Source: a virus
Strand: one strand, 5' to 3'
Length of the DNA: 40,869 nt
Virus record (IMG/VR): IMGVR_UViG_3300001200_000002
Location: 1 to 40,869 of that record
Positions within the stretch are counted from its first letter, which is position 1, and each line of letters begins with the position of its first letter. The position numbers and the translations under genes were made by a program. Positions 2,053 through 40,869 of the stretch are shown in pieces. Below the pieces are notes generated by a model, which saw only the letters and a program-made list of their open reading frames with translations, had not been told where the DNA came from and ran no database searches.

Positions 2053-2053
2053 T

Positions 2054-2405: not shown

Positions 2406-2437
2406 GAAACTCCTTTAAAGTGCCGTCTTTCCGGCTG

Positions 2438-2632: not shown

Positions 2633-2644
2633 CTTCTCTCCTTT

Positions 2645-2820: not shown

Positions 2821-2827
2821 ATAGCTA

Positions 2828-3386: not shown

Positions 3387-3394
3387 TTTAGCTA

Positions 3395-3706: not shown

Positions 3707-3813
3707 ACAAAATACCTATCCCACATCCAAAATAAACCGTGGATCGCTAACTGAAACATTGCTGTGAAAATCATTGTAAGTGCTATAGACGAAAGTAAGA
3801 GCAAAAACTCCAA
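3703..3813 (-). CDS. small hydrophobic peptide (36 aa, one predicted TM)
   Basis: TTG start 5 nt after AGGAG. Sequence (M)EFLLLLSSIALTMIFTAMFQLAIHGLFWMWDRYFV. Its stop overlaps the next start as ATGA. Confidence 0.35.
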   Translation of the reverse strand: MEFLLLLSSIALTMIFTAMFQLAIHGLFWMWDRYFV

Positions 3814-25073: not shown

Positions 25074-25076
25074 AAA

Positions 25077-25475: not shown

Positions 25476-25478
25476 ATT

Positions 25479-25919
25479 CTACCCCTCTTTTTCTTGTAAC
25501 TTGTAAAGCTCACCAATTCCCTCTACTTCAGAGTAATCTTGAGCTATAAATTTATCTTCAATCTTTTCTAAATCAGTTTCATCTGTTCCATGAACCGTCA
25601 CCCAAGTGCAATCTTCATGGATATATGCAGCTCTTTTTATACCAGGTTTTGATACCACAGTGTAAGGAGCTTCTATTGTTTTAAGACCATCCTCTGTTAA
25701 AAGAGTCATCTTCCCTTTTGCTAGAATATTTAAGCTTGAGTGTTTGTGAATCTTACCAACAAGCACAGTTCCTTTTGGTATGAATAGTTCACGCCCATAA
25801 ATGTCTTTTGAGAAGTGATGCTTAACAGGAAGATCCACGTGGTGTTTTTTAGGGATGTTTTTTAAAGTCTCTTGAAGTGAATATATTTTACTTCTAAAAG
25901 TTTTTATCAATTCACTCAT
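25479..25919 (-). CDS. cupin-like (double-stranded beta-helix) protein
   Basis: 146 aa with a beta-rich pattern (FIPKGTVLVGKIHKHSSLNILAKGKMTLL ... WVTVHGT). Low-resolution call. Confidence 0.35.
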   Translation of the reverse strand: MSELIKTFRSKIYSLQETLKNIPKKHHVDLPVKHHFSKDIYGRELFIPKGTVLVGKIHKHSSLNILAKGKMTLLTEDGLKTIEAPYTVVSKPGIKRAAYIHEDCTWVTVHGTDETDLEKIEDKFIAQDYSEVEGIGELYKLQEKEG

Positions 25920-26341
25920 ATCATGTGCTCCTCTAAAAGAAGCTCTAGCATTATATCACCTTTAAAAGTCCTAGTTCCAATGACTAAAAACCCTACTTTA
26001 AGAGCTATTTTTAGCATGCTTAAGTTAGTGTTTTGGATGTAGGTGGTGATTCTTTTATACCCATTAGAAAAACACCATTTAGCATTTCTTAAATAACTTT
26101 GATAAGCATGAACGGTGCCTTTTGAATTTGGGAAAGCTCCTCCGTGTTGCCAGTAAACTGATTCAGAATCAAGCTCCCTAACAGTGCAGTAGTTCATTGG
26201 CATTCTGTCTTTTATGTTTAACAAGCAAAAATCAATCCTATCCATGGAAGGATCTCTTTCTTGGTTAAAACATATTACGTGAGCTTGTGTAGAATATTTT
26301 TTCCACTCCTCACTAGAAAGCTTTTGAACCTCTACACTCAT
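25916..26341 (-). CDS. GNAT-like acetyltransferase-fold protein
   Basis: 141 aa. YWQHGGAFPNSKG ... ITTYIQNTNLSMLKIALKVGFLVIG resembles the GNAT core (beta4-alpha3, beta5-alpha4). Motif-level call only. Confidence 0.4.
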   Translation of the reverse strand: MSVEVQKLSSEEWKKYSTQAHVICFNQERDPSMDRIDFCLLNIKDRMPMNYCTVRELDSESVYWQHGGAFPNSKGTVHAYQSYLRNAKWCFSNGYKRITTYIQNTNLSMLKIALKVGFLVIGTRTFKGDIMLELLLEEHMI

Positions 26342-26955
26342 TACTTTTTACCACCACCGCTTGGAGCTGCATCTGCTGTTTTTATACTGGCCCAGGCATT
26401 CATGTTTTGATCAAAAACATTTGAATCAAACGCTCTTTCTTGAGAGATGTCTCCAAGGGTGTTTTGAATATTATATTGATCAACATTTTGGTTAAACTGA
26501 GCAGTGTTTAACTCTGCCTGACCTAAGCTATTTAAACTGTTAAGTCTGTTTTGTTCATCTGCAAGGTTAGCCTGTAAGCCTTGTCCAAAAACATTTTGTT
26601 GGTTTTGAAGGCTTTGTCTCATCCCATCTTGAGCTAGTAAAGAGGCAGCACCAGAGTTAACACCACCACGCATTGCAAGCTGGTCCATTTGTTGAGCCTG
26701 CGCTTGAGCAGTTTGTGCTTGGACATCACCGGCTTGTCTGTTTATCTGCTGCTGTTGAAGCTGTCTCCAAGTGCTTTGCTCGCCCGGTTGTCTTAAGCCT
26801 TCTTGCCTCATCATATCAAGGTAATCGGTGTTTAAGTTATTCCCAAGAACGTACTGGTTTTGTAAAGAACCATCAGCATTTCTAATGCTCTCAAACTCTG
26901 GAGCATCTGGCATTGAACCGTATTTTTCAAAGTAGGCAGTGTCTAACCAATTCAT
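26341..26955 (-). CDS. Q/N-rich virion protein candidate
   Basis: 204-aa ORF, contiguous in the late operon. Confidence 0.5.
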   Translation of the reverse strand: MNWLDTAYFEKYGSMPDAPEFESIRNADGSLQNQYVLGNNLNTDYLDMMRQEGLRQPGEQSTWRQLQQQQINRQAGDVQAQTAQAQAQQMDQLAMRGGVNSGAASLLAQDGMRQSLQNQQNVFGQGLQANLADEQNRLNSLNSLGQAELNTAQFNQNVDQYNIQNTLGDISQERAFDSNVFDQNMNAWASIKTADAAPSGGGKK

Positions 26956-27665
26956 TAATTTAACTCCTCGTAGTAAGAAAGATCCATTTCAATTTCATCA
27001 TTACCATCAGGCTGTGCATCAGATAAAGCTGTTTGCATCTTGCCTCTTTGCTGCTCAAGCATTTGAATAGCTACTGGTAAATTAGGGTGCCCCTCTTTTT
27101 CATACACTCTAACTTTTATAAATTGATAAATAAAGTTTATAAAAACAGGGATATCACATATGTCTGTATCCAATCCCGTCATTCTATTTAAGTTTCTTAA
27201 AAACCAAATATCAACAGCACCTGTGGCTGTCTCCCTAGCAGTTGGAATAAGAACAATCTTTGGGTCTGCCACTGCAGGGTTGTATATAAAATATTCATAC
27301 AAATCAGAGGTATTAAAGTTATCAGCTATTGCTTTTTTCTGAAACTTCTTATCCCCTGCAGGCTTTATTTCATAAACAGTAGACTGGTTGTTAAACATGA
27401 TTTTTCTAATTTTATGAGCGTATATCTCATCAGGTAGAGAATACTCATCTTGGTCGGCTACCAAATCTAGAGAATACTTATCAAGAAAATAATCAAGAGC
27501 CCTTCCTGACATTGTATTGATCTCGCCTTCGTACTCATCAATGGCCTCGTTTGCATAAGCAACAAGCTCATCAGGGCGCACAAAAAGCTCCCCTTGAAGA
27601 TCAAGGTCTCTTTGGATTTTAGCTTTGATCTCACCCCAGGTGTAGTATTTCTTTAAAGTGCTCAT
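26955..27665 (-). CDS. possible head-tail adaptor protein
   Basis: 236 aa. The call rests on position and a vague resemblance to podovirus adaptor proteins. Not verifiable here. Confidence 0.35.
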   Translation of the reverse strand: MSTLKKYYTWGEIKAKIQRDLDLQGELFVRPDELVAYANEAIDEYEGEINTMSGRALDYFLDKYSLDLVADQDEYSLPDEIYAHKIRKIMFNNQSTVYEIKPAGDKKFQKKAIADNFNTSDLYEYFIYNPAVADPKIVLIPTARETATGAVDIWFLRNLNRMTGLDTDICDIPVFINFIYQFIKVRVYEKEGHPNLPVAIQMLEQQRGKMQTALSDAQPDGNDEIEMDLSYYEELN

Positions 27666-27677
27666 AATCTTCCTTTA

Positions 27678-28160
27678 TTATAGCTGTGATTGCAGGTAAA
27701 ATCCAAGCCTTACATTAGACGTTGTGCCTACAGAGCTTGCTATATTGTAGTCAACCAAATCCCCTGGACTAAGTTCTATTAAAGTATCTAATTTTATAAT
27801 TTGTCCACGGCTTGTGAAATCAAGAGTGGCTTCAATATTGCTATTTTTTAGTATTTCTATGGATATAGAGGTCCCAAAGCTTGAACAGCTTAAAGATAAA
27901 GCCTCTATTTTAGAATCTTCGTGAGCTGTGAATCCTATACTCTCTTCTGCAGGTACAATAGACTTTACGAACAAATCAACAGCTACAAAATCAGTACCGT
28001 TATATCTTAAGTAAGACCCTTCTCTTGCAGCGTTTAGATTCACATCCCCTGCAGAGCCAATGGAGAATTGATTAAGGTAGCGCCTTAGAATCCTAAAGTT
28101 TTCTTGCACGTACTTGTCTTCAATCTCTCTTTCTAAAAGCTCTAAACGATTATTGATCAC
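27678..28160 (-). CDS. virion protein candidate
   Basis: 160-aa ORF in the late operon. Confidence 0.45.
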   Translation of the reverse strand: MINNRLELLEREIEDKYVQENFRILRRYLNQFSIGSAGDVNLNAAREGSYLRYNGTDFVAVDLFVKSIVPAEESIGFTAHEDSKIEALSLSCSSFGTSISIEILKNSNIEATLDFTSRGQIIKLDTLIELSPGDLVDYNIASSVGTTSNVRLGFYLQSQL

Positions 28161-30448
28161 TCTGGATTACTCCCATTTGAACCTTTAGTAAACGGTGTAT
28201 GAGACTTGCTTAAGTAACTCCAATGAAGAACATATCCGTTTAAAACAAGAACCTCGTTTTTTGGAATCCCAACCATAGAGAATTTAAAGTTTCCATCTAC
28301 CAAAATATCATCAGGGTCTTCTAAAACCACTTGGTTTGAGGTCCTTGAAGAAATTAAAAATCTTTCAGTGTAGTTGTCGTTTTCAAGTGTTATGAAGTAA
28401 TCCTCTACATCATCAGGGAAAGTAAAAACCCCACCTAACGTAGCTGTTTTGTTTGTACCATCAACTGTTATGTTCCCTATTAGATCAGAAGTAACAATCA
28501 AGGATTCAGCATTTGTAAGCTGAATCTGCTTGTATTGGCATCTTAAGCTGCCTGCTGGAAACCTTCGCCACTGCTCAATAATTCCTTGAAAATTCCAAAG
28601 AGCACGAGCGTCCCCCCAAATAGGAAGGGGTGATCCCCATACAATGCTCTGGTTGTATGTTATGGGCTGTAAGTCCCCCACAACTCTGTTAGAGTCATTA
28701 CTTGATTTAATTGCAAGGGATAAATTTGTGGTGTTTTCTGCTGAAATTAAAATACGTGGAACAAACTTTCTATAAAACTTTGAACCAAAGTCATGAAAGC
28801 ATGATTTATAGCTGTAAATTATGGCCTGATTTATCCAGTTTGCAGGGTCTGCAATGGAAAGGTCAACTTTTCTATCAGAAAACAAACTGTCTTCGTGATA
28901 AAAAATTAGACCCCTTGTGTCTCCACGATAAATTCTAAGCTCTTGAGTTTGAGGATCTTTGTGAAACTTTATGGCTGTGGGCCTAAAAGAATCCCCTCCA
29001 TCCATGGTGGTAAATGTAGAAGCTGCGCGTATTCCAAAACGAAGATCAAGTACAAAACACTTATTAGGTTCATCATCCACACCGTCTTCATTTACACTCC
29101 AAATAACTCTCTCATTGTTGGGATCATAAGTTCCCTGTATTCGCCTTGCTTTTTCAGTGTTTGAAACAAGCTTTTGATAGGTCTCATTTATACTATCTGA
29201 AATTTTCATAACCTTGTAGCCATCAGACCAATAAAATCCAATCTCTCCAGCCCAGAAAATACCTTTGTGCGTTTGAACAATAGAGTTGTTAGAAACACAC
29301 CCGGCTCTATCATCTATACGCCTAAGATCCATTGATCCATTGCCATCGCTTCCAAAGAATTGATCAATTCTGTAAATGAACTGTCTGCAAAAAAGCATTG
29401 GTCTATCAAATATAGAAGAAAGTCCAAAAATCTCTTGCTCTACCTCAGAGGTAAACTCTTTAGGAACACTATCAGGATCCCCTGGGATTGATTGATGAAC
29501 AGTGTACCTGCTTACTGCTGAGCCTTCTTGTGTGTGCGCGTAGTATCCAGTGTTATTGACTACGTGAACGTATTTACACAAAGGTGGGGCTGAATTAGAA
29601 ATGCGACCATTATCCCCGTATAAAACAGTGTTGTTTACAAGAGTTTCATCCTCAACTTCGTCTACAAAGGAAAGGGTAGTAAAGGGAACGGTTCCAACTC
29701 TGAAGTAATCGTCTGCACCGTTTTGCGTCCTGTAGATTTCGATTTGTAAATTATCTGTGTCATAATTACCTGTACCTGAAAAGCTTGAAGGAAGAGTTAT
29801 AGTTGAACCGTTACCTGCTGTAATCTCACCACCTGAAACAATGCGCGGGAAGAAGGTTACTGGCCCTCTATCCAAATAAGTTGTGTCTCCAACTTGGTAT
29901 GTGTAGGAAAAAATAAAAGCATAAGAATAAGTAAAATCAGAACCAGATGGATCCGTGATGTCCCCCGTTGCGAAGTCTGGAACATCTGGAAGACCCGCTG
30001 ACCTAACTTGTAAATCTTGGTTTTCATCAAAGTATACTCGCTGCACCTGTGAAAAAGCATCATTAGCCATAAGGATTTGACCTTGGTAATGAGCAGTTGA
30101 AATTAAAGAGTTGCTATCTCCTTGATCAAATAAAGGTCTATTTGTAGGACCTAATAATTCTGCATAAACTCCGGCATTATCATAAAAAAGCCTAGTTCCA
30201 GAAACAGACACTAGCGTGTCTTCATCCAAAAGAGTGTCGGGTACAAAATCAATCAAAGAAACTCTGTTTAGACCAGAGGGAAGTTGTGTGGTGATAAATA
30301 AATCACTACCCCATCTTGTCCTAGGTCTTTTATGGTTTGTGTAAAAAAAGTTCTTAAACTCTTCTGCAGTATTTGTCTCACCATCCACAAAGTAATCAGT
30401 TATCCCGCCTGAAAAATCTATAACCTCTAATGGCTGTGTTTGCATCAT
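28157..30448 (-). CDS. large tail structural protein (nozzle/tube-like by size and position)
   Basis: 763-aa ORF with beta-rich composition and ATGA overlaps on both sides. Confidence 0.5.
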   Translation of the reverse strand: MMQTQPLEVIDFSGGITDYFVDGETNTAEEFKNFFYTNHKRPRTRWGSDLFITTQLPSGLNRVSLIDFVPDTLLDEDTLVSVSGTRLFYDNAGVYAELLGPTNRPLFDQGDSNSLISTAHYQGQILMANDAFSQVQRVYFDENQDLQVRSAGLPDVPDFATGDITDPSGSDFTYSYAFIFSYTYQVGDTTYLDRGPVTFFPRIVSGGEITAGNGSTITLPSSFSGTGNYDTDNLQIEIYRTQNGADDYFRVGTVPFTTLSFVDEVEDETLVNNTVLYGDNGRISNSAPPLCKYVHVVNNTGYYAHTQEGSAVSRYTVHQSIPGDPDSVPKEFTSEVEQEIFGLSSIFDRPMLFCRQFIYRIDQFFGSDGNGSMDLRRIDDRAGCVSNNSIVQTHKGIFWAGEIGFYWSDGYKVMKISDSINETYQKLVSNTEKARRIQGTYDPNNERVIWSVNEDGVDDEPNKCFVLDLRFGIRAASTFTTMDGGDSFRPTAIKFHKDPQTQELRIYRGDTRGLIFYHEDSLFSDRKVDLSIADPANWINQAIIYSYKSCFHDFGSKFYRKFVPRILISAENTTNLSLAIKSSNDSNRVVGDLQPITYNQSIVWGSPLPIWGDARALWNFQGIIEQWRRFPAGSLRCQYKQIQLTNAESLIVTSDLIGNITVDGTNKTATLGGVFTFPDDVEDYFITLENDNYTERFLISSRTSNQVVLEDPDDILVDGNFKFSMVGIPKNEVLVLNGYVLHWSYLSKSHTPFTKGSNGSNPE

Positions 30449-30819
30449 TAGTATAAAACCTCAAGATCCAGGGGCTCATTTAAAAATACATAAATGCTTG
30501 TACTGCTTAAAAAAGCAATGCGTGGATATATCATCTCTTTAGTTGTCGGATCTCTAAAAGACACCCTTGTTGTAGCAATCAAAGATCCTATAGGAAGATT
30601 TAAAGTAGCTCTGTACTCAGTCCCCTCTATAGAAAAATCAGCTTGGGTTATGTTATCTACAGTAGTCTCAACACTAGAAGATGCTATCTTTCTAGAGGTG
30701 ATGCCATCATGAGTGTGATCGTTTTGAATTTCAGCATTACTACCAAGTGCGGGGAACCAAACATCACCCGTGTCACCTGTTTCTGGTTTAATAATACCTT
30801 TACTTAGCGTTTGTGCCAC
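30448..30819 (-). CDS. virion protein candidate
   Basis: 123-aa ORF in the late operon. Confidence 0.45.
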   Translation of the reverse strand: MAQTLSKGIIKPETGDTGDVWFPALGSNAEIQNDHTHDGITSRKIASSSVETTVDNITQADFSIEGTEYRATLNLPIGSLIATTRVSFRDPTTKEMIYPRIAFLSSTSIYVFLNEPLDLEVLY

Positions 30820-31234
30820 GTCTTACCCCCACAAGTTCAAAATGTGGAAGGTCATGAAAACTCTGGTCATCAAAATGATTATCAGAATCCCAGTCTCCGC
30901 CCCACCTTATCTTATATCCTAGTTTAAATGCTACACCCTTAACTATGCCAGCTAAAAAATAAAACCTATCCCAGTCGTTCCAATCAACTGGATAAGGTAT
31001 TACATCAACTGCAAGGCTTGGGCTTGTATTGTGTTTTGATCTAGGCCAGCGAAGTTTAGACTGGCCAATATCGTAGAGCTTGTTCTGTTCTTCTCTGTCT
31101 CTGTGACCTTCTATAACAGCACAATCTATGATTTTTATAACTTCATTAAAAATTTCTTGTAAGTAAGGGTGGGCTTCATCCAGGTTTTGTCTGGATCTTT
31201 TTCCAAATGCGTAGGTCTTTTTCTTTCGTGCCAT
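30800..31234 (-). CDS. endolysin, peptidase M15 (VanY / L-alanyl-D-glutamate peptidase type)
   Basis: EGHRDREEQNKLY, SKHNTSPSLAVDV and WGGDWDSDNHFDDQSFHDLPHFE match the H..D...H zinc site of M15 phage lysins. Confidence 0.85.
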   Translation of the reverse strand: MARKKKTYAFGKRSRQNLDEAHPYLQEIFNEVIKIIDCAVIEGHRDREEQNKLYDIGQSKLRWPRSKHNTSPSLAVDVIPYPVDWNDWDRFYFLAGIVKGVAFKLGYKIRWGGDWDSDNHFDDQSFHDLPHFELVGVRRGTNAK

Positions 31235-31533
31235 TATCGCCCCTCTATTTCATCAAAAATATACTCTAGATAAAACCTTTTATCTATGACTATAAATTTA
31301 TCCATATCAGGGTTATCCTGAATGGGAATGATTTGTTCTTTTTCGTCTTTAAGTTCACGAAAAAGAACTAAATCTTGTGGGTCAATCAGCCAAATCTCTA
31401 TCTCTGTTTTTCTTCTCTCGTGTGCGCATCCCATCGTAATCATACTTAGTAGGACGACCGCTAACACCAGATGCGTGCTCTTCAAGAGGTTTTTGAGACT
31501 TGTTTTCTGTACTTTCATCAACAGCCCCTTCAA
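31234..31533 (-). CDS. lipoprotein, outer-membrane spanin candidate
   Basis: Signal STHLVLAVVLLSMITMGC ending in Cys. It lies immediately upstream of the endolysin gene. Confidence 0.45.
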   Translation of the reverse strand: MKGLLMKVQKTSLKNLLKSTHLVLAVVLLSMITMGCAHERRKTEIEIWLIDPQDLVLFRELKDEKEQIIPIQDNPDMDKFIVIDKRFYLEYIFDEIEGR

Positions 31534-31595
31534 CTTCTTTTTTCAACTCAATCTTTTTTAGGTACACCAAAGCATCCCTAATAAGAAAAAGTATA

Positions 31596-31862
31596 TCACG
31601 TATCGCTAGAAGAAGTTTCAGCTTGTTTTTCCTTGTTAAGCGACTCCACCGCATCCTCTAACTGTTTAGTAAGAGGATTCTTACCAAGGGTAGGGAACAT
31701 CTGTAAGACTTTCATTATTAGGTTTCTGCCCTTACCAACAATTAAGTCATCCTTAGTTGATGGCGTTAACCTTACAACAACTGTGGCAATCAATACCAAA
31801 CCTAAAAATATAGATGGTAAAAGGCTAACCCAAGCCGGTAAGTTCGTTAAAATGTCTTCCAT
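31596..31862 (-). CDS. single-TM membrane protein (holin or inner-membrane spanin candidate)
   Basis: 88 aa with the TM segment WVSLLPSIFLGLVLIATVVVRL and a charged C-terminal region. Part of the lysis cluster. Confidence 0.45.
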   Translation of the reverse strand: MEDILTNLPAWVSLLPSIFLGLVLIATVVVRLTPSTKDDLIVGKGRNLIMKVLQMFPTLGKNPLTKQLEDAVESLNKEKQAETSSSDT

Positions 31863-31880
31863 TTGTCCCCCTAGTTAAAA

Positions 31881-32099
31881 TTATCTGTAATCTTTTCTAG
31901 TGAGTACTAACTCAAGTCCCCTTACTTCTTTGATTAAGAACTTTTCACCACCCACTACAACAGTAGGCTCTTCGCCTTTTTTTGCATCTTTCTTAAGCCC
32001 TAAAACGATTTCTTCGTTAGACTTTGGTCCCTTTGGAGCCTCAGTTTTAACTGGTGCTTTTGCTGAAGGTTTTTTCTCTTCTTTTTCTTTAGTAGCCAT
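31881..32099 (-). CDS. Lys-rich small protein
   Basis: 72-aa ORF preceded by AAAGGAGA. Confidence 0.5.
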   Translation of the reverse strand: MATKEKEEKKPSAKAPVKTEAPKGPKSNEEIVLGLKKDAKKGEEPTVVVGGEKFLIKEVRGLELVLTRKDYR

Positions 32100-32112
32100 G
32101 TGCTATCTCCTT

Positions 32113-33204
32113 TTATAAACTATTATTCTCTGTAATATTATTTAACTTTTTAAGTGTTACGTAAGACTGTCCTATACCAGCGATAACAGTGACGGATCCG
32201 CCGGATACAGCTACATCAAACTCCAAAGACTGTACCCCTGAACTACCAGTTTTAAAAATCTTAGACGCTCCAGCACTTAAAACTAATGCATCAGCTCCAT
32301 CTTGAGATTGACCTTGAGCACCTACTCGTGTAACCCCCGTCCTCACTCCATTGTCATTTAAAACAGCTACTACTTGAATATCTTCGTCATTCTGTATAGA
32401 CAACTTCCCATGTATATGAACCTCGTAAGTAGAATTATTTTCTAAAGCAGGAAATTTTAAATCAGTTAGTGTATCTGTAGTATTTGCTGAAAAAGAAGCA
32501 GAAACTGATAAAGTTTTTGTTCTAAACTGATCTGCATTTGGAACTTTTGTACCTATCTGTCTCCAAGTAGACCCATCGCTATAGAATGCATGCACAGGTT
32601 TAAAGGCAGCATTACTAAAAGGTGCATTCCCGTCAAAAGGGATTGTTCCTGAATTAGTGTTAACAGTTGTTGTTGTTTGGCCAGAACCGTTTGTGAAACT
32701 AAAACCTTGTGCGTAAAAAACTAAACCGGGAACAGATGCGGGGTCACCAAGGTTTATGTTCTCTATGCCTGTGGCTGAGCTCTCAACCCAAGAAATACCT
32801 ACGTTTCTAGTAATGTCATTATCTAGAAATTGTGATTCATAACCAACGTCGATACCACCCGCGCCACCAACTTCAGTTTCAACTCCATTTTCATCTAAAG
32901 AAAACAAACCTCCGCTAGGCTTTGTAAATAAAGTTGTAAACCCCGATGTTGGGTTTGTAGGATTTGAAGATAAGTTTTGAATATTGAAACCACCATTTAT
33001 TTGAGGTCTTTGTAAAATTTTATTTTGAAAAGTTTGTGCTGAAGTTAAATCAGCAAAAGTGAGCCAAGTTGTGGCGTCTCCTAAAACTTTGTACTCTTTT
33101 GTATCTGTTCTAAAGATACCACGCCCGATTGTTTGCGCTGTCGGTGTAGGGTCTGATGTTACATTCTCAAATTGTGCTGCAATTAATTGACCGTGTACTC
33201 TCAT
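32113..33204 (-). CDS. fibre-like virion protein
   Basis: The N-terminus MRVHGQLIAAQFENVTSDPTPTAQTIGRGIFRTDTKEYKVLGDATTW resembles a common phage fibre N-terminal motif. Confidence 0.55.
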   Translation of the reverse strand: MRVHGQLIAAQFENVTSDPTPTAQTIGRGIFRTDTKEYKVLGDATTWLTFADLTSAQTFQNKILQRPQINGGFNIQNLSSNPTNPTSGFTTLFTKPSGGLFSLDENGVETEVGGAGGIDVGYESQFLDNDITRNVGISWVESSATGIENINLGDPASVPGLVFYAQGFSFTNGSGQTTTTVNTNSGTIPFDGNAPFSNAAFKPVHAFYSDGSTWRQIGTKVPNADQFRTKTLSVSASFSANTTDTLTDLKFPALENNSTYEVHIHGKLSIQNDEDIQVVAVLNDNGVRTGVTRVGAQGQSQDGADALVLSAGASKIFKTGSSGVQSLEFDVAVSGGSVTVIAGIGQSYVTLKKLNNITENNSL

Positions 33205-33219
33205 TAAAATTCCCCTAAT

Positions 33220-33423
33220 TTAGACAAGTTTATTGTCTGAAAAAAATAGTGTGTTGTCTAGTATGGAGGCCCCTACCCCAACTGTGTTAGAAATACCCAA
33301 ATTAGCAGCACCATCAGCAATCCAAGTATCCCTTGATTTGAAACGTATTGAAGTAAGGACCATAATAAAAAAATTGAGTGAAAGAAGCGATGTGGCTTTT
33401 TTAATAAATTGGTGCGCTATCAT
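33220..33423 (-). CDS. hypothetical small protein
   Basis: 67-aa ORF whose ATG follows AAGAGG by 5 nt. It lies between the capsid-gene terminator and the fibre-like gene. Confidence 0.4.
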   Translation of the reverse strand: MIAHQFIKKATSLLSLNFFIMVLTSIRFKSRDTWIADGAANLGISNTVGVGASILDNTLFFSDNKLV

Positions 33424-33450
33424 CCAGACCTCTTTAAAGACTTAAAGTTA

Positions 33451-33475
33451 AAAAGGGACTCATTGAGTCCCTTTT
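33451..33475 (-). terminator. rho-independent terminator (bidirectional form) downstream of the capsid gene
   Basis: AAAA-GGGACTC-att-GAGTCCC-TTTT: a perfect 7-bp GC-rich stem flanked by A and T runs, starting 13 nt after the capsid stop. Confidence 0.8.
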
Positions 33476-33487
33476 AAAGGTTTTAGC

Positions 33488-34753
33488 TTACAAGAACGCT
33501 GCTGCGTCGATGTTGTAAGCAATACCGTTGTTACCCGGCTTAGTGTGCTCCATTTCGCCGAACAGACACATGTCTACGATGTACTGGTAGCCGTCTTCAG
33601 TTCTAAGTTCATAGAACTCATGACCTTCTGGATTCTTTCTTTTCTTGAAGAAACCGTTTGAACGGAAAGTACAAGAATCTTCATCGTGATATACTACTAT
33701 ATCAGTATCCCATTCTTGAACCATGATGATCTTAAGCTTGCCTTTTACAGTGTTAAGCGTGATCTCATCCCAACCATAAACAGTAGCTTTTCTGCTCTCG
33801 ATGCTTACGTTGTAGTTTCCTCTGTAAGCATTAGAACCACCACCGTTTTCGATAGCCTGCATAACAGCTCCACCGATAGTGTAATCCATAATGATTGTAG
33901 AAGCTTTACCACGAGCCTTTTTTCTAACTTCTGAGTATCCATCAAAAAGCTTTCCAAGAATATTAGTTTTAGTCCAAGAAGAACCATCAATATTCACAGC
34001 TTGTAAGAAAGGATAAGCAGTTTTAGTTTGACCGTGTAAAGTAGCCGAACCACCGTTTGCAGCTGAAAGATAAGCATCTCTCATAGACTGGAAACTTACT
34101 AAATCAGCATCATCTGTAAAGATCAATGCGTTATCAGCTGTAGTAGCTGCACTAACATCAGCGGCTGCGCCACCTCTAGTAGCTGATAAAGTGATTGCGT
34201 TTGCATTGATATCAATAGCAATTACATAAAAATCAACAGCTGCAAGCGTGTCACCTTTAATAGTGATTTTTTGGTTTAATGCGAATCTATCGATTCTATC
34301 AACAACTAATACACCACCTGCAGTACCGTCAACAGTAGCTTTAGCAAAGTGTGGGCCTGTTCCTAACTGAATAGATACAGTCATTTTGAAAGCATCCATG
34401 AAGTCATTGATAGTATCAGGAAGTATCTTTAAGAAAGAATCTTCATTGATACGGCCACTGTGATCAACTAAATCTCTGTGGTTAAAAATCATTGATCCCC
34501 AAGCTTCCTTGTAATCATCGATTGAACCACGAACATATAAGTCTTCACTGATATCATTAGCAGCTGTTAACTTACCCATTCTGATAGAAGATGCTCCAGA
34601 ACCCTTAAATGGAACTATTAATTTTCCACCTTTCCAAGAATCATCTTTCTTACAGTTAGTTAAAATATAATCTCTTTTAATTAGCTCTTCTTTTAGAAGA
34701 TCATTTGGCAGATACTCATTAAGCATCGCCTGAAATGTACGTGTAGTACTCAT
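33488..34753 (-). CDS. major capsid protein
   Basis: 421-aa ORF directly after the scaffold-like gene, with a strong RBS (AAGGGGAAACC) and a strong terminator behind it. The portal-scaffold-capsid gene order supports the call. Confidence 0.7.
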   Translation of the reverse strand: MSTTRTFQAMLNEYLPNDLLKEELIKRDYILTNCKKDDSWKGGKLIVPFKGSGASSIRMGKLTAANDISEDLYVRGSIDDYKEAWGSMIFNHRDLVDHSGRINEDSFLKILPDTINDFMDAFKMTVSIQLGTGPHFAKATVDGTAGGVLVVDRIDRFALNQKITIKGDTLAAVDFYVIAIDINANAITLSATRGGAAADVSAATTADNALIFTDDADLVSFQSMRDAYLSAANGGSATLHGQTKTAYPFLQAVNIDGSSWTKTNILGKLFDGYSEVRKKARGKASTIIMDYTIGGAVMQAIENGGGSNAYRGNYNVSIESRKATVYGWDEITLNTVKGKLKIIMVQEWDTDIVVYHDEDSCTFRSNGFFKKRKNPEGHEFYELRTEDGYQYIVDMCLFGEMEHTKPGNNGIAYNIDAAAFL

Positions 34754-34783
34754 TTGGTTTCCCCTTCAAATTTTTAAAAGATG

Positions 34784-35785
34784 TTAACCTTGCTGTTGAA
34801 GGCGCGCATCCCTAAGTTTAATAATGTCATCAATGGACTTGGGTTTCTTCTTAAGTGGTGAAGTCCCTTTGCCCTGAATGTTTGGAATCACTTGCTGCTG
34901 CTTGTGAACCACCCTGTTCGCTGGTTGTTGTGTTCCCACATTACCTATTTGAGGATTTTGCTGCGTTCCCGTAGCCGATAATCCCAGTAAAGATACAGCG
35001 TCTTGCACTGCTTCTTGAGCCGTTAAGTCACGACCATTTACTTGGTGATGAAAGATCCCTCTCTCGATCGCTACCTGTCTGAATGCACCTGGCTTTCCAA
35101 CCTGAGCATCATACTTTTGAGCCATAGTTTGAATGCTTGGCTCTGCTAAGCTTTGATCAAGTTCCATCGACCTCTGGGCTCTAGCAGTTTGCTGAATCTG
35201 AGTTTCCAAATGTTGGTTTTGAGTTTGCAGATTCTGCATCGTCATAACCCTTTGCTTCTCAGCATCAACTTGTGCTCTTTCCTCGGGCGAAAGTTCTTGA
35301 TACTTTAACTTCTCTATAGCGTAATTTATAAACATGTCTTCAGGCAAGCCCAAAGCTTTAATAAAAGTTTCAGCATCTCTTTTTTCCACAAGCTCATTTA
35401 CTTTTTGAAGACTTGTATCAAGAGTTGTAAAACGATCTTTATAATCATCTCTTTCAGCTTTTGCTAATTCTAGACCATGGCCCCTAGTATAAAGGTCCTG
35501 AAAATTCTTATAAGTTTCCTCGTCTTTAATAAAAGGCTTTGCCCACTCATCAAATTGTAGCTCTTCATCTCTAACTTTATAATTGTAGTTAGGCTCCCAA
35601 GTAGGAGTTTGAGGTTCTGTAGTTTCAGCAGATGCTTGGACATCTGTTTCACTAGAATCCGCTTCAGTCTCTGACATCTGTGTAGCATCATCAACTGCAG
35701 TTACTTCTTCTGCAGTGTCCGCTGCTGTAGTTTCTTCAATAATGTTTTCTTCTACTTCCGGTGTTACTTGTTCTATAGTTTCCAT
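34784..35785 (-). CDS. scaffolding protein
   Basis: 333 aa with an acidic, low-complexity N-terminus and a Q-rich helical body, located between portal and capsid. Confidence 0.55.
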   Translation of the reverse strand: METIEQVTPEVEENIIEETTAADTAEEVTAVDDATQMSETEADSSETDVQASAETTEPQTPTWEPNYNYKVRDEELQFDEWAKPFIKDEETYKNFQDLYTRGHGLELAKAERDDYKDRFTTLDTSLQKVNELVEKRDAETFIKALGLPEDMFINYAIEKLKYQELSPEERAQVDAEKQRVMTMQNLQTQNQHLETQIQQTARAQRSMELDQSLAEPSIQTMAQKYDAQVGKPGAFRQVAIERGIFHHQVNGRDLTAQEAVQDAVSLLGLSATGTQQNPQIGNVGTQQPANRVVHKQQQVIPNIQGKGTSPLKKKPKSIDDIIKLRDARLQQQG

Positions 35786-35815
35786 GGTGCTGCTTCTCTC
35801 CTTGTTTGTTTTTGT

Positions 35816-38017
35816 TTACCCCTGTGGAGGTACGGGAAGACTTTCCATATTCCCGCCATTTAATTGTTGTTGTTGGTTCATCATCTGTGCAATCTGCGCC
35901 ATGCTAGATCGCTCCATTTCTTCCATTTTATCTAAATTAATTCCTTGAAGCTCAAGCTGTTTAAGTAACCACTCAACAGCTTTTTGATCAATACGTGCCC
36001 TTTTTGGCTGTTTAGAAGGATCTTCATTAGGAACATACATGTCAACAGAAACAAGTGCTCCGCCTGTAGGTATAAACCCTTGTTGCGCGCGCTGAATCTC
36101 TTGAGATTTTCTTGTAACTTCATTTTGATGCATCTGCATAAAAGTTTGGTAGTATTGTTGTTGCTCTGGTGGTAAATAAGCAAAGTCTGATTGCTTCATT
36201 CTATGGGTAAGCTTTTTAATGTAATACTCATTATTATCAAGAGGATTAACCTTTGGCTGACTTCCTCTCTCTATTGCAAGCATGTCATTTGTAACATTGT
36301 CGTAATCAATTGTTAAATCAGAAAAAGAATCCTCAGTGTTAACGTAAGGCATGTTTTTTATGATTTTACCAATGTCATCAGGATTTAAGTTTTTACCAAC
36401 GTATTGTAAAATGTGCTGGAAGTTTATCTGCTTACCTAAAAGAGTTTCTGCATCATCAGAAACAGGCTCTAAGTTTATGCGATAACAAAGCTTAGTTGTT
36501 TTTCTAAACTCTGGAATGTTAACCATTTCATTTTTTCCAATTGCAGATATTAAAGCATCATCTGGTAGGTAATGCTTTGCATACTCTAAACTTGTTTCAC
36601 ATATATCAACCATGAATCGTTCCCATTTTTGAATGTATGGAACATAAACTGACTTTTGTGAAAGAGTTCTAAATAACATTGTATGAGGATCAAGCTGATT
36701 GTTTTTTTCAGCCATAACTTCATCTAAAAATGTAGCTTTATAAAGCTCTGCAATTGTTCTTTGGTTGTAATCACCAAACTGTGCGCCTGTTCTACCTGGC
36801 AAAATTTGTGGTGGTGCTCCATTGTAAGAAACCCCTCGAACACCAGGAAGCAATGCACCTTGAGAGAGTTTAGATCCTTTTTGATAAAGTATTTTATCAT
36901 CGCCTAAAGTCACTTGGTGGGTGGCTTCTTGAGAAGCACTTCTATTAATTTCAGCTTGATATGGTCTTGCGACTTTTACAATAGACCTTGCTCTTGGATT
37001 TGTTACATACTCATCAAAACCAACCCAATGAATTGGAAAAATACCAAAAGGTAATTCGCCTTGTTCTAAAATTCCATGCTCTGTAAACATGTAAAAATAT
37101 CCTTTAGGATATAAAATAGAAGGCTTTATAAACATCTCTTTTACTAAAGTTTCAGTCTTTGTGCTTTTGTAAGCCACTTTGTTAGAATCAAAAACTACAA
37201 AGTCATCGCCCTTAGACTCTTCTAAAAATCTAAGTTTATCAGGGTCCTCTTTGTATTTTTTCATCAATGATCTTTTATCAACCATCTTTCTAATTATTAA
37301 ATGCTTAGCTTCTTGCATGTCCTTACACTCTGCAGGACGCAAAAGATTAAACCCATGAATAGGTTCGTAACAAAAATCCCCTGACATAACAGGTTTTGTC
37401 TCATCGGGAACTTCTTGTAAAACAGGCTCCATAGTCATTGGATCTATTATGGGTTGACCAGTAGCATCGTCCACTGCCATTTCCATAACTTGTTCACCAG
37501 TTTCCTCATCGATTAAAGGCTCATACCCTATATGCTGACCCTTATCTGGATCCCAAAAAACTTTTAGTGCAAACTCACCAACTTCTACGAACTCTTCAGC
37601 CCATTTTCTAAATTTATCTTTAAACTTGTGACGCTCTTTTATATCTTCCCAAACCGCTCGGTTTAGTTCTGCGTCTTTTCTGTCCTGCATCTCAGTATCA
37701 TTCTTGGGAACAGGTCTAACCCCAGGGGCTTTTTGAATAATAGAGTTTGTGTAGGTTTTAACAACTCTATAAATGTGGTTTTTTGTTAAGCGAAGTTTTG
37801 TTTGAGGCGATAACTTATTGGTTTCACGAAGACGCGAAAAATGCTTATTAACATTTTTTGTGTAATGCTCACCTGCAGAAAGTAATACATTAGAACGCAT
37901 TTCAGAAAATGCGGACTTATCAACTTCTTCAGATTCGGTATAGAGCCTATTGAGCTCCTCCACTTTCATCTCGTCTAAATTTTTCAGCTTCTCGTCCATC
38001 TCTTTTGACCTCACCAT
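35816..38017 (-). CDS. portal protein
   Basis: 733-aa ORF downstream of the large terminase and upstream of scaffold and capsid. Size and position are typical of podovirus portals. The true start may be an internal ATG. Confidence 0.7.
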   Translation of the reverse strand: MVRSKEMDEKLKNLDEMKVEELNRLYTESEEVDKSAFSEMRSNVLLSAGEHYTKNVNKHFSRLRETNKLSPQTKLRLTKNHIYRVVKTYTNSIIQKAPGVRPVPKNDTEMQDRKDAELNRAVWEDIKERHKFKDKFRKWAEEFVEVGEFALKVFWDPDKGQHIGYEPLIDEETGEQVMEMAVDDATGQPIIDPMTMEPVLQEVPDETKPVMSGDFCYEPIHGFNLLRPAECKDMQEAKHLIIRKMVDKRSLMKKYKEDPDKLRFLEESKGDDFVVFDSNKVAYKSTKTETLVKEMFIKPSILYPKGYFYMFTEHGILEQGELPFGIFPIHWVGFDEYVTNPRARSIVKVARPYQAEINRSASQEATHQVTLGDDKILYQKGSKLSQGALLPGVRGVSYNGAPPQILPGRTGAQFGDYNQRTIAELYKATFLDEVMAEKNNQLDPHTMLFRTLSQKSVYVPYIQKWERFMVDICETSLEYAKHYLPDDALISAIGKNEMVNIPEFRKTTKLCYRINLEPVSDDAETLLGKQINFQHILQYVGKNLNPDDIGKIIKNMPYVNTEDSFSDLTIDYDNVTNDMLAIERGSQPKVNPLDNNEYYIKKLTHRMKQSDFAYLPPEQQQYYQTFMQMHQNEVTRKSQEIQRAQQGFIPTGGALVSVDMYVPNEDPSKQPKRARIDQKAVEWLLKQLELQGINLDKMEEMERSSMAQIAQMMNQQQQLNGGNMESLPVPPQG

Positions 38018-38330
38018 GCATATGACTGTCTATGATGTCTTGCTCCCACTGTAATGGGTCATCCAACATCGTTTGATTGTCCTCTAAGTCTTGAAGGGCT
38101 TGTTTATCCTCTTCAGATAACTCGAGTGGTTCTACTGGTTTTGATGCGTTCGTTCCCGAATCACTTGGTGTGTCAACTTGCATTCCTGCAGGTGATGGAT
38201 TGGTCCCCCAACCTCTAAATTCTACCTCAAATCCGCCTAACTTGAGAGTTTTTACTCCCGATTTAGCACATTGCTTTATAATATTACAAATTTCATTAGC
38301 TTGTAACTCTTTAATTTCCATATTGCTCAT
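37947..38330 (-). CDS. hypothetical acidic protein between terminase and portal
   Basis: ORF track 37947..38342. The ATG at 38330 follows GAGGAG and overlaps the terminase 3' end. Confidence 0.5.
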   Translation of the reverse strand: MSNMEIKELQANEICNIIKQCAKSGVKTLKLGGFEVEFRGWGTNPSPAGMQVDTPSDSGTNASKPVEPLELSEEDKQALQDLEDNQTMLDDPLQWEQDIIDSHMHGEVKRDGREAEKFRRDESGGAQ

Positions 38331-40692
38331 TCCACTCCTCAAAATCGTTTTCTAAATCGTGCCAATCTTGAGGATCGTTCGCAGAATTACCATCTTCAAA
38401 AATACCCCGCCTTTGAGCAAGGTGATAATCTTCCCACGCCTGCTTAGTCTGTGGCATTTTTGCCCCTTGATCAACATCATCCTCATCAGAACCAGCTTTT
38501 ATATCATCAAAATCAAAAGGAACCTCGACAACCCCATATCTTGAGGTGTCCGTTAAGTCATCCTTGGCTTTATTCTTAGGCGTGGCCTTTTGAAGGCTTA
38601 TGTACTCAGAGCCTAGTTTTCTTATCTCATCATCCCCATCAAATAAGAAAAACATGTCATTCTTGAAAAGAGTGTTTAGTAAATCTTCCCCTAGCTCATG
38701 TGATTTATTGGCTTTTTCAAAACTCTCCCCAAGTCTGGCTGTAATCGTACCAAAGTCCTTGGCCGCGTAATCATACACCTTTTTTTGGAATATTTCATGC
38801 TTACCCTGCATCTCTTTAAATTTCGCGTACACATCACCTGAAGTAGTTGGAATACCATCACCTCTCCAAGCCTTGTAAATCCACCCCTTTTTAAAATCTG
38901 GTTGAACTGCAATAAAAACAATTGCACTAGGGTGGCCTGTTTCACCACCACTTCCAATATCTACAGCTGCGTATCTTGGCCAATGCTTAGGAATTTCAAA
39001 AGGCTCAACGTAATGCCTTGTAGGGTCAAACTGGTGTATAGTTCGCCCTTCTTCCTTTACAAACCTCCCCCAAACTCTTCTTTTAATCTCGTTTTTACTC
39101 TTACACTTAGCCTCAACTTTTTTAATTCTTTCTAAAGTCCAAGGTGATAGGTTACCATCTGCGTATTTTAAACAATCATACATAGAAACAGTTCTCTTCC
39201 ATGCATCTTTTAAAAACTCTTGATCCGTACCCCTTGCCTCCATAGCTCTCCACCACATCTCTTGTCCTAGTGTGGCTGTAAAAACCATATGGAAAAAACC
39301 TGCAGTTCCCGCTGTACGGAATTGTAATTCATCGTAAAGATTCTCAGGAAGCTCTTCATCACAATTAGAAAGGTTAACTCCTGATAGATAGTAATTATGG
39401 ACGTTCTTGACGTTTATATTATAGACTTTTTGCTTTTTTGTATAAAGAGCCACACTGTCTAGTACAAAAGTATCTTGCGGAGTCCTTCCTAGTGCTAAAT
39501 TTTTCAGAGCAGTAATCACATGATCTAGTTTCAGTGTAGGCTTTTTTTCTACATCTTTGAGAACAATAATTTCCTGTTGTTTTCTGAGTAGAGCGAGTCT
39601 TAAAACTTTTTTTACACTGTTTACAAACTTTTTCTTTATACTTACCAAGCGTCCCATTTCCCCACTCATGGAGTTTGTGGATTCTTGTGTGCTCAGCCCT
39701 TGTAATAAGCTCCAGATTAGAAATTTTATTATTAGTAATATCCTCATCTTTGTGATGTATGACACTACCTTTTGGAACTTTACCCCTGTACTCTTCCCAA
39801 ATAACCTGGTGTAAATAGGATCCGCTTCCTCTGTTAGACTCTGCAAAATAGTGGTGCCTCTTGTCTTTCGACTCAGGGTATCTTGAGTACTCTTTTCCTT
39901 TAAACTTAACTGTTTCTTTTTTTGCCATGAAGGACTTACATCAAGAACGTCCTTAGAAGTCAAATGTTGAAGCTCCACATAACCGCTGTTTTTTGTCCAG
40001 ACCCTGTGATCCGGGGTCCCTTCTAATTTTAATCCATTGCTTAGGTACCGGGTTATTACCCCCGCCTCTCTAGAATAGTTAGTGACAACTTTTTCGTAAG
40101 CACCTTCTCTAGTAAGAACATCAACGCCTGCTTTTATATCCTGTATTGGAAGTAAACCATCTTTGGTTTCAATTAGATGATCTTTAGTAAAACAAAAAAT
40201 AGAATATACAGAACCTGATTGAAGCGTGTGCGAATCCTGCATATAAGTTTTAAAATAAATAGAAACGCCACTTCTAAAATTAATTTGTTTTATAAATCTT
40301 TTATCATACTGAGCGTCCCAACCATAAACAGCATCGGTCTTCATCTCACCTCTTGGCATAAACTCAGGAACCCATTTTTTTTCAAACTCAGCAGTGGCCA
40401 CATCTTTTGAAGGGTAAAGATACCAAAACATGTTTGGCTCCCTACCCCATAGTCCTTCCCACTTATCTTTATTCGTGGCCCAGTCAATACACTTTCTTAT
40501 TTGAGTCGAGCTTTTAGAGATTTGGTTTGCAGCGCATAATAACTGGACGTCATCTTTAGTGTTATTAAAAAACTCCCAGGCCCACTGATACCAGGGCCAT
40601 CCGTACAAGTGAGGAAGATCTTTTTGTATCTGCTCTTGTCTTTTTAATAATTCTAGTTTCCGTTCTTGGTATATTCTGACATAATCTTTCAT
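38311..40692 (-). CDS. terL: terminase large subunit, interrupted by an intein (precursor 793 aa)
   Basis: P-loop-like LLCAANQISKSS. Walker B is restored as VYSIF-CDEE once 277 codons are removed. The C-terminal nuclease region has YAAVDIGSGGETGHPSAIVFIAV. Confidence 0.85.
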   Translation of the reverse strand: MKDYVRIYQERKLELLKRQEQIQKDLPHLYGWPWYQWAWEFFNNTKDDVQLLCAANQISKSSTQIRKCIDWATNKDKWEGLWGREPNMFWYLYPSKDVATAEFEKKWVPEFMPRGEMKTDAVYGWDAQYDKRFIKQINFRSGVSIYFKTYMQDSHTLQSGSVYSIFCFTKDHLIETKDGLLPIQDIKAGVDVLTREGAYEKVVTNYSREAGVITRYLSNGLKLEGTPDHRVWTKNSGYVELQHLTSKDVLDVSPSWQKKKQLSLKEKSTQDTLSRKTRGTTILQSLTEEADPIYTRLFGKSTGVKFQKVVSYITKMRILLIIKFLIWSLLQGLSTQESTNSMSGEMGRLVSIKKKFVNSVKKVLRLALLRKQQEIIVLKDVEKKPTLKLDHVITALKNLALGRTPQDTFVLDSVALYTKKQKVYNINVKNVHNYYLSGVNLSNCDEELPENLYDELQFRTAGTAGFFHMVFTATLGQEMWWRAMEARGTDQEFLKDAWKRTVSMYDCLKYADGNLSPWTLERIKKVEAKCKSKNEIKRRVWGRFVKEEGRTIHQFDPTRHYVEPFEIPKHWPRYAAVDIGSGGETGHPSAIVFIAVQPDFKKGWIYKAWRGDGIPTTSGDVYAKFKEMQGKHEIFQKKVYDYAAKDFGTITARLGESFEKANKSHELGEDLLNTLFKNDMFFLFDGDDEIRKLGSEYISLQKATPKNKAKDDLTDTSRYGVVEVPFDFDDIKAGSDEDDVDQGAKMPQTKQAWEDYHLAQRRGIFEDGNSANDPQDWHDLENDFEEWNEQYGN
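39364..40194 (-). mobile_element. Hint-type intein (277 codons) in terL
   Basis: Block A CFTKDHLIETKDGLLPIQDI, block B LEGTPDHRVW (TxxH), blocks F/G LDSVALYTKKQKVYNINVKNVHNYYLSGVNLSN followed by the +1 Cys. The central ~165 codons have no recognisable domain in this frame. Confidence 0.8.
39419..39928 (-). CDS. HNH homing endonuclease nested in the intein, in a different reading frame
   Basis: 169-aa ORF with SVIHHKDEDITNNKISNLELITRAEH (HNH_3 type) plus two zinc-ribbon-like repeats, CKQC...YCSQRC and CDYC...FCTRQC. Its codon phase is offset by 1 nt from terL. Confidence 0.85.
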   Translation of the reverse strand: MAKKETVKFKGKEYSRYPESKDKRHHYFAESNRGSGSYLHQVIWEEYRGKVPKGSVIHHKDEDITNNKISNLELITRAEHTRIHKLHEWGNGTLGKYKEKVCKQCKKSFKTRSTQKTTGNYCSQRCRKKAYTETRSCDYCSEKFSTRKDSARYFCTRQCGSLYKKAKSL

Positions 40693-40701: not shown

Positions 40702-40869
40702 TTAGCCCTTACCTGACTCTGTTTCAGTGTTAACGTCTTTTATGTTTTTGTCGTTAGCACTTACTTCCACAGCAGGGGTTTTGTAGTGGTTGATGTTGTT
40801 AGCAGCCTCTGCTGGTGGGAGTTTTTTAATTTCTTTTTGAAGCCTTGTAAGTTCGTTTTCTATTTCCTC
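40702..40869 (-). CDS. putative terminase small subunit, C-terminal part (continuation of the ORF starting at 734)
   Basis: Same frame as 1..734 across the junction, ending ...NTETESGKG-TAA at 40704..40702. The last 53 nt duplicate bases 1-53. Confidence 0.45.
   Translation of the reverse strand, partial: EEIENELTRLQKEIKKLPPAEAANNINHYKTPAVEVSANDKNIKDVNTETESGKG
40817..40869. repeat. 53-bp direct terminal repeat, copy 2
   Basis: Exact copy of bases 1-53. Confidence 0.95.

Follow-up and report, generated by a model that had tools for sequence, protein, structure and literature searches.

How can one stretch of phage DNA encode an uninterrupted terminase large subunit together with a complete nuclease lying in another reading frame of its intein, and which of the two overlapping products does selection maintain? 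The question is raised by the terminase large subunit gene (terL) of IMG/VR virus record IMGVR_UViG_3300001200_000002, which was analysed over its positions 1 to 40,869 (40,869 nucleotides, hereafter the window). The original prediction, made from the sequence alone, had placed a complete HNH homing endonuclease gene of 169 amino acids (aa) inside the terL intein, on the same strand and out of phase with it, while the terL frame stayed open throughout. This arrangement was borne out by our analysis. The locus is very probably a non-canonical two-gene intein in terL, in which an HNH_3 gene in the -1 frame occupies the endonuclease-insertion point. Its parts are given below, compared where possible with L087, the nearest relative of the window (pN/pS, ratio of the proportions of nonsynonymous and synonymous differences).

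38311..40692, minus strand: terL precursor open reading frame (ORF), 793 aa, made up of N-extein, intein and C-extein (ORF listing)
40195..40692, minus strand: N-extein, aa 1-166, last residues ...SGSVYSIF, followed by the Walker-B-like C-D-E (alignment with homologues)
39364..40194, minus strand: intein, 277 aa, aa 167-443 (boundaries set by Pfam and intein-less homologues)
39929..40194, minus strand: N-terminal Hint half, about 88 aa, upstream of the HNH start (against L087, 69% aa identity, pN/pS 0.33)
39941..39943, minus strand: TGA stop in the -1 frame, 4 codons ahead of the HNH ATG, closing the HNH frame upstream
39419..39928, minus strand: HNH_3 homing-endonuclease ORF, 169 aa, ATG to TAA (ORF listing and Pfam)
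39419..39928, minus strand: contents of this ORF, namely ATG start, HNH core, two C4 zinc-ribbon modules and TAA stop
39427..39928, minus strand: terL-frame read-through stretch, about 167 aa, WQKKKQLSLKEK...LYTKKQK, linking both Hint halves (0 stops)
39916..39922, minus strand: A_AAA_AAG heptamer in the terL frame, directly past the HNH ATG (formal -1 slippery site, probably incidental)
39364..39426, minus strand: C-terminal Hint half, blocks F and G, 21 aa (against L087, 90% aa identity)
38311..39363, minus strand: C-extein, CDEELPEN... up to the stop (intein-less homologues)

The ORFs were taken from the listing of minus-strand ORFs in the window, and their domains from a Pfam search. The HNH ORF begins at terL offset 764 (mod 3 = 2), which places it in the -1 frame, and across its whole length the terL frame contains 0 stops and the third frame 26. 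HNH_3 (PF13392) was matched with E=1.4e-17 solely in the frame of the small ORF, while matches to Hint_2, Intein_splicing and PT-HINT were confined to the terL frame. The read-through stretch of the terL frame matched no Pfam domain and no family of its own, in keeping with the motif-less linker that had been described there.

The splicing elements of the intein were all located in the terL frame. The Cys1 nucleophile is Cys167, in 'CFTKDHLIETKDG' (CFTKDH...), and the Hint_2 match covers aa 167-210; block B (TxxH) is present as TPDH in 'EGTPDHRVW' of Hint-N, and blocks F and G read VYNINVKNVHNYYLSGVNLSN, followed by the +1 Cys (Asn|Cys+1 end). The conserved part of block F starts at VYNINV, and 'LDSVALYTKKQ' upstream of it is the other-frame reading of the HNH tail. 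The genuine overlap between intein blocks and nuclease gene is thus 2-3 codons, and not the last ~15 HNH codons as had been thought. The TAA stop of the HNH ORF straddles the Tyr-Asn codons of block F; in relatives the stop likewise commonly falls (as T|AA or T|GA) across the Tyr-Asn/Asp codons of this block, and the nuclease ORF therefore fills exactly the endonuclease-insertion point of the intein.

Removal of aa 167-443 from the precursor leaves a protein of 516 aa. In a collection of 5.8 billion proteins the closest homologues have about 515 aa and are colinear end to end with TerL once the intein is removed, and in these intein-less homologues the junction reads ...SVYAIF|CDEELPE.... In the alignment three of them (P0004, P0006 and P0025) show ...SVYAIF|C(T)DEELPE here and are otherwise ungapped. 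The intein bounds fixed in this way, 39364-40194, agree exactly with those originally predicted. The insertion site lies directly ahead of a Walker-B-like C-D-E, a presumed Walker B motif recognised from its hhhh-DE pattern. The TerL protein of the window is recorded by two sources, JGI and Logan.

Selection on the two reading frames

The openness of the terL frame was first considered for the window alone. When synonymous codons of the HNH protein were redrawn with the codon usage of the window, the terL frame was stop-free with P=0.007, and shuffling the ORF's own synonymous codons gave P=0.05. In the +1 frame of the other long ORFs of the window, 0 of 4987 windows of 170 codons were open, the longest open run being 91 codons. 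Taken by itself this single-sequence evidence against chance openness is suggestive, not decisive.

The relatives carry the argument much further. Over 73 unique HNH ORFs, no stop was observed in the host (terL) frame, against 202 expected from a conservative shuffle of each ORF's own synonymous codons. Free-standing homologues serve as a natural control, and have 8-20 stops in the corresponding frame; these free-standing or otherwise non-overprinted controls were from Lactobacillus phage CL2, Salmonella phage Shemara, Acinetobacter phage BP10 and the loci L024, L039 and L057. The view that an accidental open frame of this length is unlikely is therefore upheld, both by the 4987 comparable windows and by the comparison across relatives that had been suggested as a check.

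The two frames were observed to evolve very differently. In 39 close pairs compared by the Nei-Gojobori method, the ratio of nonsynonymous to synonymous substitution rates (dN/dS) was 0.03-0.38 in the HNH frame, mostly about 0.1, whereas the same nucleotides read in the host frame gave values of about 1 (0.4-3.4). Substitutions in these pairs cluster at HNH codon position 3. Between the window and L087, the HNH frame shows 64% identity and a pN/pS of 0.30, as against 42% identity and 0.85 for the host frame of the overlap; the Hint halves and the exteins evolve as normal coding sequence. With dN/dS of about 0.1 for the HNH frame and about 1 for the host frame, the nuclease is the constrained product, and the terL-frame stretch is selected solely against stops. 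Selection on both frames had been proposed from the sequence. The proposal stands insofar as the nuclease is under purifying selection and the host frame is kept free of stops; beyond this, the host stretch is unconstrained.

The terL frame is also the easiest one to keep open, because stops in the host frame require a T at HNH codon position 2, where it specifies hydrophobic residues, and the nuclease is basic and hydrophilic. The layout could thus be held stable by selection on the nuclease protein together with selection against terL-frame stops only.

The nested layout in related phages

A megablast search of terL against 50,697 phage records gave no match, and relatives could be reached only at the protein level. 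With the single HNH sequence a word-indexed protein search returned 2 matches, and with a profile built from 61 sequences 930. In a tblastn search the HNH protein matched within the annotated terL of Tetrasphaera phage TJE1 and of Acinetobacter phage Highwayman, in both of which the HNH lies at offset 2 (mod 3) inside a still-open terL ORF. Clostridium phage phiCDHM19 has the same out-of-frame HNH layout in its terL. All three are cultured, plaque-forming phages that carry the nested layout in their sole terL, and the layout is therefore viable. In their records (L001 for TJE1, L002 for Highwayman and L084 for phiCDHM19) a single long coding sequence is annotated as 'terminase large subunit', and the nested HNH gene is unannotated.

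A wider set was assembled from IMG/VR by a pattern scan with the HNH alignment, from which the best 80 of at least 364 relatives were taken. In 77 of the 80 loci, an HNH ORF with a stop-free +1 (host) frame lies inside an ORF of 600-1100 aa. The HNH ORFs of these loci have 170-260 codons, their third frame contains 2-41 stops, and loci with the nested layout range in G+C content from 0.32 to 0.66. Directly after the HNH stop, every such host ORF has blocks F/G (consensus VYNLxVE..HEFFANGILVHN) followed by Cys or Ser. Ten host ORFs were searched against Pfam; Intein_splicing or Hint was matched in 9/10 and a terminase family (Terminase_3, Terminase_6N or GpA_ATPase) in 8/10, L030 being the one among the ten that had no Pfam match. 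L008, a relative with its intein at the insertion site of the window, matched Terminase_6N/6C. An intein at the same Walker-B site, each time with an HNH in the -1 frame, was also found in three TerL proteins related to that of the window phage; one of the three comes from the ocean samples of TARA.

The HNH/Hint unit spans three TerL Pfam families and occupies at least three sites in TerL, namely the Walker-B site 'F|CDE', a C-terminal nuclease-motif site, at which the C-extein begins C-(x)-D-A-x-R-Y, and a site at 'CDP'. Neither the 86 loci nor the 120 best proteins included an in-frame HNH relative. Pairwise identities of Hint and of HNH were correlated weakly (Spearman 0.18-0.26, near-identical pairs removed), a comparison that bears on single versus multiple origin of the unit.

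Two loci depart from the layout. In L077 (IMGVR_UViG_3300029353_000133, 2965-3549) a premature stop interrupts the HNH frame, and the terL frame has stayed open there; apparently the endonuclease gene is in decay while the intein persists. In L039 (IMGVR_UViG_3300021431_000028, 1436-3727) terL is fractured. Its first ORF ends within the N-terminal Hint half (..TGDHPILTERGYV..), an HNH gene of the same family stands free at 2935-3567 between the Hint halves, and a third ORF (3386-3727) has blocks F/G and the C-extein. Host-frame stops at this locus number 5 in the tblastn match (3001-3561) and 8 over the whole HNH open span. From its gene order L039 would be a split-intein state of the HNH/Hint element, or a recently broken one.

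Members of one HNH family are thus met as free-standing genes beside terL, overprinted in an unbroken intein, or lodged between split-intein halves, three states in all. Since free-standing, overprinted and fractured copies coexist, all three stages of an endonuclease gene meeting a mini-intein may be visible within one nuclease family. Free-standing members adjoin intein-less terminase genes in CL2, L024, L057, Shemara and BP10. BP10, which has no intein, and Highwayman, which has one, both infect Acinetobacter and have genomes of 44.4 and 45.0 kilobases (kb), respectively; a genus (Obolenskvirus) is given only in the BP10 record. The two could serve as a natural pair for work on homing.

Other insertions were also seen in these terminases, either besides the HNH-overprinted intein or in its place. 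In L041 (509-3835) LAGLIDADG_3 was matched at aa 258-322, and the window TerL homologues P0033 and P0058 (864 aa, PF14528) have insertions of LAGLIDADG type. By these domain matches, the TerL of the window's phage group would have been invaded by several different inteins.

Expression and role of the nuclease

All tested members of the HNH family matched HNH_3, and Endonuclease_7 was matched by none of them. H58, H59, D61, N66, N67, N71, H80 and H84 are invariant in 61 HNH sequences, H40 also being listed as invariant. The catalytic His/Asn/His and four Cys pairs are conserved in the family, and the window protein has kept every catalytic and zinc-binding residue. An AlphaFold2 model built on an alignment of 117 sequences reached a mean predicted local distance difference test score (pLDDT) of 90.2; a model from a 3-sequence alignment (pLDDT 65) was not used. 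The best PDB match was I-HmuI (1U3E), the HNH homing/nicking endonuclease of phage SPO1, with E=3e-4 in hmmsearch and as the top match in Foldseek (probability 0.91, though with a modest E=0.03). At a TM-score of about 0.29 the overall structural similarity to I-HmuI is low; that enzyme, unlike the window HNH, is encoded in a group I intron and has another DNA-binding tail. In a fold search the C-terminal modules of the window HNH resembled zinc ribbons of the YacG type.

Several features of the relatives bear on how the nuclease is made. The HNH start is ATG in 60 of 64 unique sequences. Nearly all loci have a stop in the HNH frame 1-27 codons upstream of the start, mostly within 10, and the conserved N-terminus M-E-x-x-T-I-x-F-N-G-x-x-Y-R-R-Y-P begins right at that start. 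In 29 of the 64, a Shine-Dalgarno (SD)-like 4-mer was observed 5-17 nucleotides upstream of the start, a number for which the host ORFs themselves predict 6.8 (P<1e-5, simulation). The conserved ATG starts, the upstream stops and the enrichment of SD-like motifs therefore indicate that the HNH protein is probably made by independent internal initiation and not by frameshifting.

A mechanism can be proposed that is well supported by these comparisons. A Hint domain of class-1 type (Cys1 ... Asn|Cys+1) is inserted just before the Walker-B-like Asp-Glu of TerL. Ribosomes translating terL would read through the nuclease gene and so place an unconstrained stretch of about 167 aa between the Hint halves; the intein would then excise itself together with this stretch, giving a TerL of 516 aa. 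The nuclease itself would be translated from its own ATG by internal initiation on the same mRNA, as the conserved starts and the SD-like motifs of the relatives suggest. It presumably cuts intein-less terL alleles in co-infection, with repair copying the whole element, that is, homing. A further proposal, tenable in our view though somewhat on the doubtful side, is that the -1-frame HNH_3/Hint unit is a single, old and highly successful mobile family specialised on terminases, for which the out-of-frame state is stable, possibly obligatory, and not a brief intermediate. If so, a toxic nuclease translated on its own could be made at a dose independent of that of TerL, which is expressed late and at a high level.

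The distribution of the unit also bears on its role. Among the best 120 TerL homologues about 110 are intein-less, with a length of about 515 aa, and 6 have an HNH-type intein, including the window's own; at least 2 have LAGLIDADG-type insertions (P0033 and P0058), and P0060 and P0114 are two further long ones. In the window itself the copy in the intein is the sole member of the HNH family. Since most TerL homologues are intein-less, and three intein-less relatives have no HNH homologue within +-10 kb, the pattern fits a selfish homing element, and favours reading the HNH/Hint unit as such rather than as an essential packaging nuclease.

Some observations weigh against the two-gene homing intein. 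The penultimate residue of the intein is Ser where His is usual; Ser is also found at this position in many relatives, including the cultured TJE1. The HNH ATG of the window is without an SD-like motif, which most genes of the window have, and its translation start is therefore uncertain. Free-standing homologues adjoin terS, terL or the portal gene, where packaging-associated HNH proteins also occur. The absence of any HNH homologue from three intein-less relatives with conserved gene order was established within +-10 kb, the range to which the scan was limited.

The most serious rival builds on the third of these points. The HNH would then be an accessory packaging nuclease lodged in terL, like the terminase-assisting HNH proteins of cos phages, and its free-standing kin are placed as this would lead one to expect, between terL and portal in CL2 (L083), L024 and L057, beside terL in Shemara (L085), and upstream of terS in BP10 (L086). 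We nevertheless consider such a role improbable, because close relatives with an intein-less TerL have no HNH homologue in the range scanned, the distribution among TerL homologues is sporadic, the best match in both structure and sequence is the intron homing enzyme I-HmuI, and L077 retains its intein with a truncated HNH.

A recoded product is, if anything, slightly less credible than a packaging role. Here the HNH would be made by programmed -1 frameshifting or transcriptional slippage at A_AAA_AAG (39916-39922), as a fusion of N-extein, Hint-N and HNH. The heptamer is of dnaX type, conforms to the slippery pattern X_XXY_YYZ, stands in the correct phase at the start of the HNH frame, and is shared by the window with its closest relative L087; the missing SD motif of the window would also be understandable on this account. 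Against it, the heptamer was found in L087 and the window only, and most relatives are without a conserved slippery heptamer. Folding of the RNA downstream of it was no better than chance (-5.7 against a shuffle mean of -5.4 kcal/mol), and its sequence is accounted for by the Lys-rich coding of 'MAKKE' and 'WQKKK'. The ATG and preceding -1-frame stop kept by nearly all relatives, and their SD-like motifs, also argue for a separate start. Frameshifting as a general mechanism was rejected, the heptamer being unconserved and no stimulatory structure being present; in the window it would be an additional route of low probability.

Two other routes to a nuclease product were considered and rejected. 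No promoter-like site was found upstream of the HNH start, the region containing a total of 4 such sites against 3.7 expected, and an internal promoter was set aside. As regards a group I intron, a search of 39200-40400 against Rfam gave nothing relevant at E<=1, and the selected openness of the host frame argues against RNA splicing.

It is very unlikely that the HNH ORF is a silent relic of an endonuclease gene that landed in a mini-intein and is decaying there, so that only the terL frame matters. L077 shows that such decay can occur, and the window HNH is shorter than most of its relatives (169 against about 210 aa) and is without the EWHxSxEG insert. The HNH frame is, however, under purifying selection both in the relatives and between the window and L087, and the window has kept its start codon and all its catalytic and zinc-binding residues.

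An assembly artefact, in which compensating indels at the A7 run (39917-39923, positioned as first reported) and at the A runs near 39427-39439 hide an HNH that is truly in frame, has a negligible chance of being correct: both frame junctions do lie at A-rich runs and in-frame HNH_3 inteins exist, such as that of cyanophage CL131 gp069, for which splicing has been shown (PMC6293099), but the -1 layout recurs in 77/80 independent IMG/VR loci, three GenBank phages and three TerL relatives, mostly without homopolymers at the junctions, an in-frame HNH would leave the other frame unguarded where 0 stops are seen for about 202 expected, and 0 of the 120 best protein homologues is a long Hint+HNH fusion. 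Compensating indels, the error against which the original prediction had advised a check, are thus excluded by recurrence of the layout in cultured phages and in dozens of assemblies that are independent and highly diverged.

Known out-of-frame nucleases and wider significance

Neither of the known intein arrangements had been thought to apply to this locus. This was correct in that terL is a single unbroken ORF, and overstated in its novelty, since inteins with out-of-frame endonucleases had already been described. Inteins with an endonuclease in another frame or strand go back to Gorbalenya 1998, as cited in 10.1101/2025.01.02.630785 and 10.64898/2026.09.14.751524. Gosselin, Arsenault and Gogarten (bioRxiv 10.1101/2025.01.02.630785) reported endonuclease VII-like ORFs in frame 3 of actinophage inteins, proposed that free-standing endonuclease genes invade mini-inteins, and termed such architectures rare. 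Their inteins resemble that of the window in having a contiguous splicing domain, an unbroken extein/intein frame and a nuclease ORF in frame 3 (equivalent to -1), and in that their hosts include the phage terminase large subunit. They differ in the nuclease, which in the window is HNH_3 (PF13392) with zinc ribbons and has no Endonuclease_7 match, and in frequency, the HNH_3 layout being found in 77/80 of the best IMG/VR relatives and in phages of Clostridium, Acinetobacter and Tetrasphaera. When the TJE1 HNH was used in tblastn, no further actinophage was matched at E<=1e-8.

A cyanobacterial dnaX intein with an out-of-frame LAGLIDADG ORF was described by Phillips, DeSimone and Gogarten (10.64898/2026.09.14.751524), with the same dN/dS asymmetry. 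As in the window, its overlapping ORF is under purifying selection, dN/dS of the host-frame overlap is raised, and the element is distributed sporadically, with no known relatives in frame. Unlike the window, it has LAGLIDADG in place of HNH, and it sits in a cellular gene of a cellular genome and not in a phage. The ShiLan domain (Arsenault et al. 2025, PMC11855218) is a hidden out-of-frame HNH in a mycobacteriophage methylase with an open host frame; it shares with the window a host frame without stops and a stop codon placed at the extreme end of the insertion. Because ShiLan is without a splicing domain, its insertion is retained in the mature protein, whereas the HNH of the window lies between two Hint halves and is expected to be removed by splicing. 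Sequence searches linked the HNH family neither to ShiLan nor to the endonuclease VII-like ORFs.

Fractured genes (Dassa et al. 2009, PMC2677866) have a free-standing endonuclease gene between split-intein halves. The position of the nuclease gene at the endonuclease-insertion point is common to these and the window, and L039 is exactly in this state with the same HNH family; the window differs in that its host gene is one 793-aa ORF that runs through the nuclease gene, and not two ORFs with half an intein each. What was found is the arrangement of a non-canonical intein, with a nuclease ORF between the splicing blocks, in another frame, and the extein/intein frame unbroken.

The in-frame intein in the dCTP deaminase of cyanophage vB_AphaS-CL131 (gp069), the splicing of which was shown experimentally (PMC6293099), has the same order of Hint-N, HNH_3 and Hint-C as the window, and its HNH core matches the family profile with E=6.5e-16. 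Unlike in the window, the HNH is in frame, forms part of the intein polypeptide and is without the double zinc-ribbon tail. The same phage has a terminase large subunit of 935 aa (gp059; L090, 18845-21652) with a LAGLIDADG-like segment (..YMYGALIGDGS..), which suggests that gp059 may have an intein too, apart from the published one.

Inteins with an out-of-frame nuclease are thus already known. We found no description of HNH_3 ORFs overprinted in terL inteins in open-access papers and bioRxiv; this family is new, and apparently the most abundant among them. It provides a large natural set for the idea that inteins gain endonucleases when free-standing genes invade mini-inteins. It would also be an unusually clean case of overlapping genes, in which one product is a normal protein and the other frame is merely stop-free, its product then being discarded by the predicted protein splicing. 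For annotation there is a risk that overprinted inteins are mistaken for decaying or mini-inteins. Splicing, internal initiation and homing could all be put to a direct test in the cultured carriers phiCDHM19, TJE1 and Highwayman.

As for the window as a whole, no tRNA genes were found in it, and its bases 1-53 are identical to bases 40817-40869, so that the assembly is circularly closed and represents a whole genome with a unique length of 40,816 bp. At E<=1e-5 no PHROG family was matched by the 733-aa ORF at 35816-38017, presumably the portal gene, or by four further large ORFs of the structural module (22222-38017); a sixth ORF of this module, at 28157-30448, weakly matches families of virion proteins. 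Good matches were obtained for the replication genes (primase, family A DNA polymerase and helicase). The window phage looks like a member of an uncultured lineage, with relatives in metagenomes of marine (TARA) and other origin.

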